A DNA stretch of 64,000 nt from an uncultured Acidobacteriaceae bacterium. Its GTDB lineage: Bacteria; Acidobacteriota; Terriglobia; Terriglobales; Acidobacteriaceae. The translations under genes were made by a program, and so were the position numbers. This document shows positions 29,969 to 37,794 of the stretch, piece by piece. A model generated the notes under the pieces. The model was not told the DNA's origin, ran no database searches, and saw only the letters and a list, made by a program, of their open reading frames with translations. How positions within the stretch are numbered: position 1 is the first letter of the stretch; the number at the start of each line of letters is the position of its first letter. The DNA is taken from positions 476,378 to 540,377 of the forward strand of contig CAWHVT010000002.1 of assembly GCA_963832855.1 (NCBI GenBank), given 5' to 3'.

Positions 29969-30015
29969 AATGGTGGGCAGTGAGGGACTCGAACCCCCGA
30001 CTTCCTGCTTGTAAG
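29969..30015 (-). repeat. att site: displaced 3' fragment of tRNA-Val
   Basis: Identical to 37716-37762; identity ends at the edge of the anticodon loop. Confidence 0.95.
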
Positions 30016-30123
30016 TCGGTCGGAGATTTTCTCTCTCACTGCCTACCATTTGCTCTAATTATTACAAAATCAGCAACTTCCTGCTAGTCAAAGACGCGCG
30101 GGATTTCTATGGTTATCTATCAC

Positions 30124-30148: not shown

Positions 30149-30169
30149 TTCCGCGGTTTTCACCGCGGT
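30149..30169. repeat. Probable integrase arm-type site, left arm
   Basis: TTCCGCGGTTTTCACCGCGGT identical at 37650-37670. Confidence 0.75.
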
Positions 30170-30453: not shown

Positions 30454-31188
30454 CTAGGACGCGTCGCCGGGGTCCGGGTGAGGGGTAACCCTGCCTGAAT
30501 CGCCGTCATTGCTGGGAGCAGGCAGCGCAGCGCTGGGAGCTTCGTTGTCAGCGCTGGTGACATTGGCAACCGGCAACTGAAGGCTGGGATCGAAAAAGGC
30601 GAGCTTGGCTTTAACTACCGGACTGATGTGCGCCCACTCGCGTGCGATGCATTCGGGGTGTTGCAGCAAATAAGATTCCGCGAAGTATCCGGCACCGTCG
30701 CTGGGAATGAAATCACAACGGGCCATGACTGCGGCCACTCCGTCCACAGGCGACTGTGTATCTTCGGTGTCGGTCTCAGAGTAGGTAAAACCAAAGAACC
30801 GTCCGCCCGGACGTGCGCCGTCGATTAAGTCTTTCAGGAAAGTTGCAGCGTCAGTGTCGCCAGTGGCGGCGCGTATGAATTGCGCTTCAATGGCTACTTC
30901 GTTCCAGCTTGCACCGGGTTTCAAACCTACTGCGATTGCAGCCGCATTCGGCGCACGCTGACCCGATCTGCGAATTGCGCACTTACGAAAACTGCGATCT
31001 TCGCGGACTTTTCCGCCCGGATTCGGAGAGCTGCCCGGTTGGAACTGGACTGGTGATGGATTGCTTGCGGAGTATGCTGTAGACGGCGGATTTTTCTTGC
31101 GTTTTACTGTGTCGAGCACAACGTGCTGCACGGATTTCTTTTTTGTCTTCTTTGTTGATTTCTTCGGTGCTGTTTTTTTCGTTGCCAT
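30454..31188 (-). CDS. DUF5681-like protein, putative terminase small subunit
   Basis: FQPGSSPNPGGK motif plus WNEVAIEAQFIRAATGDTDAATFLKDLIDG; Lys-rich N-tail; AAAGGAA RBS. Confidence 0.65.
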   Translation of the reverse strand: MATKKTAPKKSTKKTKKKSVQHVVLDTVKRKKNPPSTAYSASNPSPVQFQPGSSPNPGGKVREDRSFRKCAIRRSGQRAPNAAAIAVGLKPGASWNEVAIEAQFIRAATGDTDAATFLKDLIDGARPGGRFFGFTYSETDTEDTQSPVDGVAAVMARCDFIPSDGAGYFAESYLLQHPECIAREWAHISPVVKAKLAFFDPSLQLPVANVTSADNEAPSAALPAPSNDGDSGRVTPHPDPGDAS

Positions 31189-31242: not shown

Positions 31243-31587
31243 TCACGGCATGAACCTTTCCATTCTCGTGCGTGCTCTGGCGCGCTCAGCCCAAAGCAAC
31301 ACCTGCGCTCTCTCTTGCTCCATCGCGCGCCGCGCCCGACACTCCTGATTCTGAAGGCTGCGTAGTGTCGCACTGGGAAATTCGCCATCGATATAAATGC
31401 CACTGCGAACGGCGAGCTTCGCGCGGCTCAGCACCAATGCGCAAGCGCGCCAGTAGCGATGACATGGAGGTTCAGGGAAAGGCGCATTCCAGCGGAGATG
31501 CCGCGCCCGTGGTCGCAGGTTTCCGCGCCGGTCGATCAATTGTGCGAACTGGAGCAATGCGGCGGTTTGTCTATCTTCAATCTTCAT
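31243..31587 (-). CDS. Hypothetical Arg-rich satellite protein (114 aa)
   Basis: GAGGTG RBS before ATG 31587; same strand as the operon. Confidence 0.55.
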   Translation of the reverse strand: MKIEDRQTAALLQFAQLIDRRGNLRPRARHLRWNAPFPEPPCHRYWRACALVLSRAKLAVRSGIYIDGEFPSATLRSLQNQECRARRAMEQERAQVLLWAERARARTRMERFMP

Positions 31588-31607
31588 AGTTCACCTCGAA
31601 AAGTGTT

Positions 31608-31797
31608 GTGCGGGCCGATGGCCTTGAAACACCGGCCCGCACGCGAGCAGCGCAACGTGAGAAGGGCAGGCACGTCGCGCTGCATGTCGAATCTTGCGCG
31701 GCGAGTGGATGAGACAAACACCCGCCGCGCTTTGTGACCGGGAGCAGGAGTATCCCCCGGTGTTCGCCCTCCGAGTGCCTGCCACACCCGGCGCGAA
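31608..31797 (-). ncRNA. Candidate structured RNA: five tandem hairpins
   Basis: Stems of 13, 13, 12, 8 and 8 bp; all six stem mismatches are A.C on plus and therefore G.U on minus. Confidence 0.55.
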
Positions 31798-31807
31798 TTC
31801 AAGATTG

Positions 31808-32317
31808 TTATTGTGGAGCAAACACGCCTCCCACGCGATCTACACCCGACGAATTCTGAAGTTGGTTGATAAAATCACTTTCCGCAAATTCCAACTGCTG
31901 TACGCGCTCCCTGATCCCGATGGCCTCGATCCGAAGCAGTTCGATATTTCCCAGCGTCTGCTTCGCCTTTTTCAACTCCTCCAGCCGCTCGTTGAGGGTG
32001 CGCACGCCGTCAAACCACTGCACGGCTTCTGGCTCATTCGGCAAAAAGTCGCAGACTGCCGGACGGCCAGCAGCATGGTAGCCTTGCGCCGCGATCACCG
32101 ACATCATATTTCTGTGGATGGCATCGAGTTCGGGTTGCGCGTTGAAAATCTTCTTGGCCAGCTTCTCAAACTCGCGCCGTTTGATTTTGAGTTCGCCACG
32201 CACGGCGACAAGGTTGGCAACGAGCTTGGTGCGGCGCTCCTTGCGCTCGGTGGCTTCGATCTCGGCAAGCTGCGCACGCAGTTCGTCGGCGCTAGGTTTT
32301 TTCTTTTTCGTGGTCAT
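31808..32317 (-). CDS. Hypothetical coiled-coil satellite protein (169 aa)
   Basis: AGAAGGGAG RBS; heptad-rich charged helices. Confidence 0.75.
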   Translation of the reverse strand: MTTKKKKPSADELRAQLAEIEATERKERRTKLVANLVAVRGELKIKRREFEKLAKKIFNAQPELDAIHRNMMSVIAAQGYHAAGRPAVCDFLPNEPEAVQWFDGVRTLNERLEELKKAKQTLGNIELLRIEAIGIRERVQQLEFAESDFINQLQNSSGVDRVGGVFAPQ

Positions 32318-32493
32318 GGTCTAGCTCCCTTCTTGGTTGTGTTGCGTTCATCGACTGGCTCGGCCTTCATCCACCAGCCGTCGATAGGTTGGCGCTGTGG
32401 CAGCACCGGTGGAGCAATGGGTACGCCGCTGTCGCCGTAGCGGACAAGACTCCAATAGACGGCATGCAGCCGGTTCAGAACGGCGGGCGTCAT
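32314..32493 (-). CDS. Small hypothetical protein (59 aa), absent from the ORF track
   Basis: MTPAVLNRLHAVYWSLVRYGDSGVPIAPPVLPQRQPIDGWWMKAEPVDERNTTKKGARP*; ATGA overlaps at both ends. Confidence 0.65.
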   Translation of the reverse strand: MTPAVLNRLHAVYWSLVRYGDSGVPIAPPVLPQRQPIDGWWMKAEPVDERNTTKKGARP

Positions 32494-32968: not shown

Positions 32969-33286
32969 GCGATCCTTCCCCTTGGCTGTTTGGTTTCCGC
33001 GAAATCCACCGCAATTTCGCGCTCGAAAAAGAAAAATCATTGAAAGCGCGTGGCTTGCCCACCTGCGACTTCCTGCTTATGAAGCAGCATGGCTGAAAAA
33101 GGCACACGGGCCTGCGGGTTGAAGAGGTCCGCTGGCCCGTGTGGGCGAAGTGGCGAACCACTTTGCACGTGGCGCGTGGAGAGCGGGGACAAGACCACCC
33201 TCCACGTGTTGCGGCGCTGTAGAGGACGCCGCGCATCGGGGCAGACGGAGTGGAATGCCCCGAACTTGATACCGGGAGGGGGTATA

Positions 33287-33386
33287 ACACGCGACAAGTA
33301 CCCGATCTCTGTAAAACTGTCGTTTCTGTCGCGTGTCGTGTGTTGGGAACACGCGACAGTAACGACAGAAAAGACAACAACGACAG
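33287..33386. other. Putative replication origin (iterons)
   Basis: CTGTCGCGTGT/ACACGCGACAG and CTGTCGTT/AACGACAG inverted pairs plus extra copies, just downstream of the primase-helicase. Confidence 0.6.
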
Positions 33387-33427
33387 TAATGTCCATTTAT
33401 CAGTGATCGAGGAATTGTCGTGTGTTC

Positions 33428-36418: not shown

Positions 36419-37702
36419 ATGGGACTCTATCGACAATCAGGGAGCAAAATCTTCGCGATAGATTTTGTCTTTCATGGCAGGCGCATCCGCCGAACTACGG
36501 GGCTAACCCGCAAGCAGGATGCGCGTGAATTCTTCGACAACTTCAAAGAGGACCTCAAGAAAAAGGCAGCGGGCATTCAAAAAAAGAAACAGCCTGATTT
36601 CTTCAAAGATGCCGCGGCAAAGTGGCAGGAACACAAACTCGCAAAGGGCAAATGGAAAAGCGCCAAGACGCGAGACATTGCCCGTGTTGCTCTGAATCAC
36701 ATCTTGCCCCGCCTAGGCGACCTGCTCCTAATTGAGGTTGAGTCTAATCACATTACTGGGTATCAGGAGTTTCGCAAACAGCAAGGTGCAAGTGACCGAA
36801 CCATCGATATTGAAGTCTCTGTGGTTCGGCAAGTCTTGCAGAAATACGGTCGCTGGGAAGCGTTGAAAGAGGATGTGGATTCAAAGTTGGATGAAGAGAA
36901 GGAAGTAGGCCGAGTGCTCACTGCCGAACAGCAGCGCATCCTACTCACTGAATGCTCTCGGTCCGCATCGCGCGGCCTGTTGCCTTTCGTTGTGCTCGCA
37001 ATTGAGTGCGGCGCTCGTTATGGTGTCATCCGCAAACTGCAATGGGGCGGGGTGGATTTTGTGAACCGCACCGTCCGATTCGGCAAAGACAAAACGAAAT
37101 CAGGCACAGGTCGAACCATTCCACTGAATCAACGGGCCGTGTCAGCTTTGACCTTTTGGGCGGAGCAGTTCCCCGACCGCGAGGCGGAGCACTATGTCTT
37201 TCCATCGGAGAAGTACGGCCTCCACGGGACCAAAGGCGAATTTGGCGGTCGTGTGGAGGTCTTCGAATGCGACCCGAAAAAGCCGGTTGGTTCCATTTCC
37301 TCCGCGTGGGAAACCGCTCGCGCAGCGACGCGGCATCATTGCCCGGAGTGCGATGGAATACTGATTGATTGTGCGAAACCGGCAAGCGGGTACGTCTGCG
37401 ACTCTTGCCGTTTCGAGACCGCGGAACTTCCCGAAGGGGTAAGTCGCTTCCGGTTCCACGATCTCCGCCACAGTTGTGTTACGCGTCTAGTCCAAGGCGG
37501 AACACCCGTCGTCAAGATCGCCAAGCTCGTGGGTTGGAGCAATTCGACAGCGATAAAGATGGCGCTGCGCTACTCCCATCCTTCAACCGAAGACTTGCGG
37601 GCCGATGTGGAAGCAGCGAGCCTGCCAGAACCCCCGGAGTCCAATCCAGTTCCGCGGTTTTCACCGCGGTCGGATGATCCGGGCAACGTCAACGTAAACT
37701 AA
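36419..37702 (+). CDS. int: Tyrosine recombinase/integrase
   Basis: ECGARYG (R), KTK (K), HDLRH, LVGW, LRYSH (Y); ends next to att. Confidence 0.95.
   Translation: MGLYRQSGSKIFAIDFVFHGRRIRRTTGLTRKQDAREFFDNFKEDLKKKAAGIQKKKQPDFFKDAAAKWQEHKLAKGKWKSAKTRDIARVALNHILPRLGDLLLIEVESNHITGYQEFRKQQGASDRTIDIEVSVVRQVLQKYGRWEALKEDVDSKLDEEKEVGRVLTAEQQRILLTECSRSASRGLLPFVVLAIECGARYGVIRKLQWGGVDFVNRTVRFGKDKTKSGTGRTIPLNQRAVSALTFWAEQFPDREAEHYVFPSEKYGLHGTKGEFGGRVEVFECDPKKPVGSISSAWETARAATRHHCPECDGILIDCAKPASGYVCDSCRFETAELPEGVSRFRFHDLRHSCVTRLVQGGTPVVKIAKLVGWSNSTAIKMALRYSHPSTEDLRADVEAASLPEPPESNPVPRFSPRSDDPGNVNVN
37650..37670. repeat. Probable integrase arm-type site, right arm
   Basis: Identical 21-mer to 30149-30169. 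Confidence 0.75.
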
Positions 37703-37717
37703 ATTATTGATTTCAAA
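37700..37717 (-). promoter_or_regulatory. IHF consensus site beside att
   Basis: Minus strand AATCAA-TAAT-TTA matches WATCAANNNNTTR. Confidence 0.6.
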
Positions 37718-37794
37718 TGGTGGGCAGTGAGGGACTCGAACCCCCGACTTCCTGCTTGTAAGGCAGGCGCTCTAACCAACTGAGCTAACCGCCC
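37718..37794 (-). tRNA. tRNA-Val (anticodon TAC), CCA encoded
   Basis: GGGCGGT/ACTGCCC acceptor stem, CCTGC-CTTACAA-GCAGG anticodon arm, TTCGAGT T-loop. Confidence 0.98.

Follow-up and report, generated by a model that had tools for sequence, protein, structure and literature searches.

What kind of element is formed by the array of hairpins that separates two genes at the tail of a leftward (minus-strand) operon in an uncultured Acidobacteriaceae bacterium, and what might it do there? The array lies in a stretch of 64,000 nucleotides (nt) of contig CAWHVT010000002.1 (the whole of which is referred to below as the window), within a 7.75-kb island integrated in tRNA-Val that contains the hairpin spacer and both of its flanking genes. 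The best explanation for the spacer was found to be a cis-encoded structured RNA domain of the island's polycistronic messenger RNA (mRNA), with a conserved core and a variable number of accessory hairpins. Its fold, its strand specificity, its conservation by compensatory change and its complementarity to the Shine-Dalgarno (SD) sequence of the gene directly upstream were all observed by computation. The finding that, in most of the lineages compared, a loop or a stretch overlapping one is complementary to the upstream ribosome-binding site (RBS) suggests a built-in translational feedback device. The features on which the argument depends are the following.

31588-31807: spacer of 220 nt with the hairpin array, between the coiled-coil gene and the small basic gene.
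31808-32317, minus strand: upstream gene, encoding a 169-aa coiled-coil protein and proposed as the regulated target; 10 nt separate its stop codon from P2.
32327-32333, minus strand: SD region AGAAGGG of the coiled-coil gene, 9 nt before its ATG (32315-32317).
31692-31810, minus strand: conserved core of three hairpins (P2, hp4, hp3), which begins at the upstream gene's stop codon and scores 79 bits with covariance model R1.
31763-31797, minus strand: P2 in the minimum free energy (MFE) fold, with outer helix UUCGC/GCGAA (31793-97 with 31763-67) and an apical hairpin (31784-91 with 31771-78, loop GGCAG).
31737-31761, minus strand: hp4, ACCGGGGG / AUACUCCUG / CUCCCGGU (arm, loop, arm), the best-conserved piece.
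31696-31730, minus strand: hp3, a 12-bp stem with loop UUUGUCUCAUC.
31647-31683, minus strand: hp2, an accessory hairpin with a 13-bp stem and loop CCUGCCCUUCU, without counterpart in the related islands L001, L008 and L028.
31660-31666, minus strand: anti-SD heptamer CCCUUCU in the loop of hp2, unpaired in the MFE fold and a perfect complement of AGAAGGG.
31608-31642, minus strand: hp1, an accessory hairpin whose stem is 13 bp long and whose loop is UUUCAAGGC; AACACUUUU comes after it.

The minus-strand (mRNA) form of the spacer was predicted to fold into five hairpins and an outer helix at -116.3 kcal/mol (z-score -6.5), and none of 200 shuffled sequences folded as well; the corresponding values for the plus-strand RNA were -97.5 kcal/mol and a z-score of -3.1. 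An earlier note on this DNA had described such an arrangement from inspection of the letters, and its details were reproduced. A repeat finder recovered the arms of the three long stems (31608-20/31630-42, 31647-59/31671-83 and 31696-707/31719-30), each pair being 92% complementary, and the arms 31737-44/31754-61 and 31771-78/31784-91 and the outer helix 31763-67/31793-97 are present in the minus-strand MFE fold. All six non-Watson-Crick stem pairs are A.C on the plus strand, that is G.U on the minus strand, with one in each long stem (three, by a strand-neutral hairpin scan), two in the apical hairpin and one in hp4. The closure of three stems by GUG/CAY was also confirmed, as was the complementarity of the loop segment CCCUUCU to the RBS of the coiled-coil gene. 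Hairpins of this kind are no habit of the host genome as represented in the window, where ten with at least 11 Watson-Crick pairs were counted, five of them in the 7.7-kb island. Only two stretches of the island fold significantly better than shuffled sequences, namely the spacer, which is strand-asymmetric, and positions 33051-33425, which are symmetric.

The same letters can be read as a 72-codon open reading frame (ORF) with a TTG start (31584-31802), and conservation was found not to follow this ORF. The block GAACACCGGGG stands in different frames in the window and in L001, the homologues contain stop codons and the peptide is not conserved. The loop length differences among homologues are non-multiples of three, and no family match was found for the predicted product.

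Related islands (L001, L008, L015, L016, L019, L020, L028, L030, L105, L109 and L111) were reached via the flanking proteins, relatives of the primase, one metagenome pattern scan and one genome scan. They originate from Acidobacteriaceae genomes and from soil, peat and sediment metagenomes, and L030 is an island in the cultured strain Granulicella sp. S190 (NZ_LMUD01000014.1). The order coiled-coil gene, spacer, small gene and DUF5681 gene is constant in all islands with enough sequence, and about ten related lineages, nearly all from Acidobacteria-type soil and peat samples, are structured at the same junction. Every homologous spacer was significantly structured (z-scores of -2.7 to -7.1), the values for nine spacers including that of the window being -6.5, -3.0, -2.7, -2.7, -5.9, -4.5, -7.1, -2.8 and -3.8, and the sense strand was stabler than the antisense strand in nine of nine compared (L105 and L109 left out). 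Spacer length ranges from 130 to 355 nt, with three hairpins in L001, L008, L015, L016, L019, L028, L105 and L109, five in the window, seven in L020 and eight in L030. In five sequences the distance from the upstream stop codon to P2 is 9-10 nt.

Homology of the first three hairpins extends over the window, L001, L008/L015/L016, L020, L028, L109 and, in part, L111. In this core, P2 has the pattern UUCGC...GCGAA around a variable hairpin, one nucleotide separates it from hp4 (A-CCG...CGG-U with flank CA), and a short linker leads on to hp3. Covariance model R1, built from seven sequences, recovered L001, L008, L015, L016, L020 and L028 as well as L109, which was outside the training set (31 bits, E 7e-10), and gave no match in L019, L030 and L105. 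In the model-fitted alignment 82% of cells were paired, compared with 41-52% when the partners were slid, and double-sided changes were found at 7 pairs. The helices anchored by hand are canonical at all pairs in all lineages (13 G.U, 0 A.C), in an alignment that was fitted to the structure and has to be read accordingly; a strand-neutral scan of the stems gave 11 G.U versus 4 A.C pairs. All pairs of P2 are canonical in 7 lineages, among which compensatory changes occur, for example from C-G to G-C at positions 3 and 5. The flanks (GAAC-A...U-CA) and stem base (CCG/CGG) of hp4 are retained across lineages, its upper stem covaries (GGGG/CCCC, UGGCG/CGCCA, GUGU/ACAU) and its arm spacing varies from 9 to 17 nt; hp4 and its flanks are the sole non-coding stretch that can still be aligned as DNA between distant islands. 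The stem of hp3, which is usually followed by CCAGA, differs in sequence in every lineage (arm identity of 0.44 across seven lineages, fully paired over 9-13 bp).

The fold proposed earlier as selected and strand-specific is thus borne out for the transcribed strand, on which about ten lineages beat shuffled sequences, the sense strand is stabler in the nine compared and the stems covary. The possibility that it belongs to an already described family was also checked. At gathering thresholds, Rfam 15 identified only the tRNA-Val in the whole window; with E values up to 10 the spacer gave only hits of 20 and 17 bits (thresholds 50 and 60), and nothing was found for the L020 homologue. The array is regarded as a candidate for an RNA family not represented in Rfam, one that covariation supports.

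Outside the core, the window's hp2 (GCAGCGCGACGUG/CCUGCCCUUCU/CACGUUGCGCUGC) appears to have a homologue in the hairpin that comes last in L019 (6866-6902, CCCGCGCGAUGUG/CCUUCUU/CACAUCGCGCGGG), the two differing by three compensatory pair changes. The presence of an hp2-like hairpin in L019, which is without the hp4 core, indicates that the hairpins act as separable modules. Mosaic recombination joints were located exactly at both spacer edges (L015 versus L016; L008 versus L016 and the window), which suggests that the array marks a module boundary. Starting at the stop codon of the upstream gene, L015 and L016 share 93% identity, yet their upstream genes differ, and L008 passes from an L016-type array to a small gene of the window type (69% protein identity) at a joint about 40 nt inside the small gene.

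Within the 34 loops that were compared, 68% of nucleotides are pyrimidines, with few A residues, and UCC occurs in 17 loops where 7.1 would be expected from spacer composition. A match of at least four nt to a generic 3' tail of 16S rRNA was found in 25 of the 34 loops (18.9 expected, P 0.008). The earlier remark that one loop of the window complements an RBS was examined across lineages by taking the longest Watson-Crick complement between each spacer and the 25 nt that precede the start codon of the coiled-coil gene of the same lineage, and comparing this with the RBSs of other lineages, without any choice of loops by hand. The complement averaged 7.1 nt for the own RBS and 6.1 nt for foreign RBSs, with permutation P values of 0.0006 (25-nt window), 0.0015 (18-nt) and 0.007 (35-nt). 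In 7 of 9 lineages the best match, 6-9 nt in length, coincides with the SD at 5-9 nt from the start codon, so that the remark extends well beyond the window, with matching that is specific to the lineage. The matching segment lies wholly in a predicted loop in four lineages and partly in a loop in the other three. L015, which has an array as in L016 and a different upstream gene, also reaches 7 nt. The segments are listed below.

Window: CCCUUCU
L001: CUCCUUC
L016: CUCCUG
L019: GCUCCUU
L020: UCCUUUCG
L028: UUUCUCCU
L109: UUCUCCUUU

The controls were flat for the RBSs of the downstream small gene (P 0.91), of the DUF5681 gene (P 0.86) and of the gene before the coiled-coil gene (P 0.39), and also for the reverse-complemented spacer (P 0.25) and for a coding segment of the coiled-coil gene (P 0.51). 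A switch acting on the DUF5681 gene, as had been suggested earlier, or on the downstream small gene finds no support, as neither RBS shows matched complementarity or reduced accessibility; the predicted accessibility of the downstream SD is no lower than that of other island genes. The label 'TerS-like' given to the DUF5681 gene was not upheld either, as only a sub-threshold Pfam match to DUF5681 was obtained (24.5 bits, under the cut-off of 27.5) and the structure model was unusable. Gating of the downstream gene by a closing helix, in which the downstream SD pairs with the U/C-rich stretch that follows the stop codon, was considered and rejected: the helix occurs in the MFE fold, but matched pairs scored no better than cross-lineage pairs.

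Taken together, these data lead us to propose, tentatively and at somewhat less than an even chance, that the spacer is an anti-SD regulator resembling that of icaR, situated in the 3' flank of the coiled-coil cistron and carried on a nuclease-resistant hairpin array. The array would be transcribed about 0.5 kb after the target RBS, and its loop would then pair with that RBS, either within one molecule or in trans, from a decay fragment that the G+C-rich hairpins hold together and that resists nucleases. Such pairing would restrict further initiation on the coiled-coil gene and could serve as negative feedback or as a timer. The array may also shield the 3' flank of the upstream message and keep the untranslated spacer closed, with the downstream RBS left free.

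Several points weigh against this proposal. The effect amounts to about one base pair above the generic complementarity of pyrimidine loops to any purine-rich SD, the test rests on nine to ten lineages, some of them related, and its duplex-energy version was marginal (P 0.044). The 16S rRNA tail with which the loops were compared is a generic one and may differ from that of the host. No SD-directed match was found in L030 and L105. The start of the coiled-coil gene overlaps the stop of a preceding 59-codon ORF (ATGA, 32314-32317), so its translation may be partly coupled and less sensitive to masking of the SD. Transcription of the spacer, even its co-transcription with the operon, is itself inferred. 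The anti-SD loop is borne by different hairpins according to lineage (hp2, P2, hp4 or a distal hairpin), which means that the conserved core is not accounted for by an anti-SD function alone; the conserved base and flanks of hp4, in particular, fall outside the mechanism and probably mark a second contact with a protein or other host factor. The structure and its conservation are solid, and the function proposed for them depends on a small statistical effect.

A simpler reading, possible but on the whole doubtful, is that of a passive intercistronic barrier which sets unequal expression by protecting against 3' exonucleases, by blocking Rho loading or as a leaky terminator, the pyrimidine loops merely avoiding spurious RBSs. 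It would suit the three to eight stable hairpins found at the same junction even without shared sequence (L019, L030, L105), the freedom of hairpin number to vary, the free downstream RBS, the module boundary at the array edges and the U-rich tract seen after the final hairpin of L020, L030 and L019 and, in weak form, of the window. However, it leaves unaccounted for both the better conservation of hp4 and its flanks than of the neighbouring proteins and the lineage-matched complementarity to one particular RBS, and no canonical hairpin-plus-U-tract terminator was called in the window spacer. The invariance in distant lineages of the hp4 stem base, flanks and 1-nt junction to P2, beneath a covarying upper stem, would be expected if hp4, perhaps with the hairpins closed by GUG...CAC, provided operators for a protein of the island, of a helper phage or of the host, as in nut- or put-like antitermination or by binding of the small basic protein. 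The nutL site precedes the lambda N gene, a position which that of the array before a small basic gene resembles, and the downstream gene does encode an arginine-rich helical protein of 114 aa. Such a platform is nevertheless unlikely, as neither a boxA/boxB-like consensus nor a resemblance to lambda nut or HK022 put was found by eye or in Rfam, no fold or family relative could be detected for the small protein, hp4 is missing in L019, L030 and L105, which retain the gene order, and there is only one downstream gene to antiterminate. Quite unlikely, too, is an extension of the anti-SD proposal in which the array is released as a stable, multi-headed anti-SD RNA whose 16S-tail-like loops capture the RBSs of its own coiled-coil gene and of mRNAs of helper phages or of the host, as an RNA weapon of translational interference, or a timer, of a phage satellite, with hp4 as the handle for a dedicated protein.

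Function as single- or double-stranded DNA, with the hairpins serving replication priming, packaging (pac/cos) or oriT-like transfer of the island, fits poorly and is judged very unlikely. In its favour, a Toprim/DUF3854 plus AAA_25 primase-helicase is among the island's genes, a short block whose conservation exceeds that of the proteins would be expected where an external partner, for instance a helper terminase, recognises a site, and hairpins of single-stranded DNA are also stabilised by G.T pairs. Yet a far better origin candidate exists at 33051-33425, the hp4 arm spacing is variable and the stems covary instead of staying constant, the strand asymmetry matches the mRNA strand in every lineage compared, and the start of the array is never more than about 10 nt from a stop codon. 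Family scans of the window proteins detected no relaxase or HUH protein, and the read depth of the island equals that of its flanks, with no molecule ends or informative joints seen (contigs only). The complementarity of the apical GGCAGG to the loop sequence CCUGCC, with CCUGC as a second partner, had been taken to indicate kissing loops or a pseudoknot, giving a compact tertiary fold or multimer. The complementary segments do exist in the window, but a 6-nt run of this kind arose in 21 of 500 loop shuffles, and in eight homologues the longest loop-loop run was 2-4 nt, which does not exceed chance, as pyrimidines dominate in nearly all loops. As hp2 is also missing in most lineages that retain the apical hairpin, this fold is considered highly improbable. 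A functional plus strand, that is an antisense RNA whose GGA/AGGA loops sponge a CsrA/RsmA-type protein, is scarcely credible. The UCC found in half of the sense loops does correspond to GGA in 17 of 34 antisense loops, but only one of the five antisense loops of the window carries it, the antisense fold is the less stable in the nine spacers compared, on that strand the mismatched stem pairs would be A.C, a search for promoter-like sites found none and the reverse-complemented array was without matched complementarity.

Further candidates were tried and rejected. On the sense strand, a sponge of the CsrB/RsmZ type was set aside because GGA occurs in only 4 of 34 loops. No intrinsic terminator (hairpin plus U tract) was called in 31588-31810; the AACACUUUU that follows hp1 places the start of the U run 5 nt after the stem, which does not qualify as an intrinsic terminator. 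A small RNA (sRNA) of the OppZ/CarZ type, ending at such a terminator, was discarded for the same lack of a called site in the window spacer. An immunity RNA of the P4 CI type was rejected as internal loop complementarity is confined to the window and is at chance level in 8 homologues. Repetitive extragenic palindromic (REP) sequences and bacterial interspersed mosaic elements (BIMEs) were likewise set aside, since no similar hairpin occurs outside the island within the 64-kb window.

The remaining genes next to the array are as follows.

31243-31587, minus strand: downstream gene, encoding a 114-aa basic (arginine-rich) three-helix protein with no assigned function.
31592-31597 and 31585-31587, minus strand: SD (GAGGUG) and ATG of the downstream small gene, both outside the hairpins.
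30454-31188, minus strand: DUF5681-like gene, last in the operon (the 'TerS-like' gene of the earlier note).

Searches of the neighbouring proteins against Pfam, PHROGs, NCBIfam, PDB sequences, phage sequences (tblastn), AlphaFold and Foldseek returned only the sub-threshold DUF5681 match and the primase-helicase, and no fold or family relative of the small basic protein was detectable in them. The flanking proteins are very rare, with two clusters each among 5.8 billion proteins, and the small basic protein has four representatives among 1.84 billion. The metagenome pattern scan gave two true matches (L015, L016) and three chance matches (L014, L017, L018). In L014 the P2-hp4 pattern (2115-2170) lies upstream of a divergently oriented gene, without island context, and was taken as a chance match. 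A DNA pattern scan of viral contigs gave chance matches only (L007, L009-L013), a scan of viral contigs with the small-protein alignment found nothing, and none of the RNA-seq runs searched for the window sequence contains it.

At its two ends the island has a 54-nt direct repeat (29969-30022 and 37716-37769, 94% identical) that corresponds to the 3' half of tRNA-Val, and its G+C content is below that of its flanks. A perfect 21-nt repeat, TTCCGCGGTTTTCACCGCGGT, is present just inside each end (30149-30169 and 37650-37670) and may represent integrase arm sites. A metagenome contig of 7759 bp (L004) consists of the island alone. The genes of the island include a tyrosine integrase, an HTH_17/AlpA-like gene and the Toprim/DUF3854 plus AAA_25 primase-helicase, and family scans of its proteins identified no capsid or terminase gene, a gene set compatible with a phage satellite or similar small integrative element. 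In the 7.3-kb contig L107 (from SRR490155), a distant relative of the primase-helicase (30% identity) lies beside genes for the small and large terminase and the major capsid protein, which indicates that this primase family is common to phage-like and capsid-less elements.

The second strongly structured region of the island, 33051-33425, directly follows the primase-helicase gene. Its strands are equally stable (z-scores down to -10 and -12) and it contains a 19-bp inverted repeat (33317-33368) of CTGTCG-type repeats; the primase gene is likewise followed by repeat-rich inverted repeats in L019, L020, L027, L028 and L029. This region is probably the replication origin of the island. At 33103-33143 (minus strand) a 14-bp G+C-rich hairpin with loop ACCUCUUCAAC is followed by CCUUUUUC on the operon strand, and represents the sole canonical-looking terminator or attenuator within the operon, between the origin-like region and small ORFs. 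Adjoining the origin-like region, 27 nt (33061-33087) are 81% identical to the anticodon-arm part of the tRNA-Val attachment (att) repeat and could be a relic or a secondary att core.

Among known systems, protection of upstream mRNA against 3' exonucleases is provided by REP/BIME elements and by the hairpins between cistrons of the Rhodobacter puf operon. The array resembles them in its G+C-rich sense-strand hairpins of about 35 nt between presumably co-transcribed genes, but differs in having an ordered conserved core with a sequence-specific hairpin, loops of 9-17 nt and complementarity to an RBS; unlike REP/BIME elements, hairpins of the array type are not dispersed, with none elsewhere in the 64 kb. 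In the CI RNA immunity of satellite P4 (seqA, seqB, seqC), a structured RNA is cut from the operon transcript and pairs with sites on the same transcript. The likeness would be that of a phage satellite using a structured RNA of its own operon; the P4 sites, however, affect the termination of transcription in a leader that lies upstream of the primase gene, whereas the conserved complementarity of the array is to an RBS.

OppZ and CarZ of Vibrio cholerae are Hfq-dependent sRNAs that are processed by RNase E and end in a terminator. By comparison, the array of the window is without a canonical terminator and is a much larger and more structured RNA. OppZ and CarZ are described as autoregulatory 3'-derived small RNAs working with 'the major' ribonuclease (PMC7398697). 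The feature shared with the array would be an RNA from the 3' part of an operon transcript which pairs with an RBS in the same operon, giving negative feedback (PMC7398697). Several hairpins with C/U-rich loops, predicted here to pair with SD sequences, also recall regulators of the RNAIII and RsaE type (PMC3868564); those are independent sRNA genes of Firmicutes with a UCCC motif, while the array loops carry CUCCU, CCUUC or UCCUUUC within an mRNA spacer.

The nearest parallel is the Staphylococcus aureus icaR 3' untranslated region (3'UTR), in which UCCCCUG, 260 nt after the stop codon, was shown experimentally to pair with the SD of the same mRNA (PMC3868564). That pairing blocks initiation and creates a substrate for RNase III, and action in cis or in trans is possible (PMC3868564). 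As in icaR, a pyrimidine-rich motif past the stop codon is complementary to the SD of the same gene, here over 6-9 nt and with a similar logic of distance (PMC3868564), and in the window the complement of about 7 nt is perfect. The array differs in that its motif is displayed in a hairpin loop, within a conserved domain made up of several very stable hairpins, and the hairpin bearing it changes between array lineages. It also lies between two genes of an operon in an Acidobacteria mobile element, and not in a terminal 3'UTR.

By sequence and structure the array is a new RNA family of a known general kind, that of structured intercistronic or 3'-flank mRNA elements with an anti-SD motif, and its format, a modular hairpin scaffold inside the operon of a satellite-like Acidobacteria island, is also new. 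If the pairing is not real, an ordinary intercistronic hairpin barrier remains. Self-regulation by an anti-SD motif in the 3' flank has so far been documented in a handful of Firmicutes and Vibrio cases; if the proposal is true, it would be extended to a mobile element of a poorly studied phylum, where it would be displayed on a conserved modular scaffold inside an operon.

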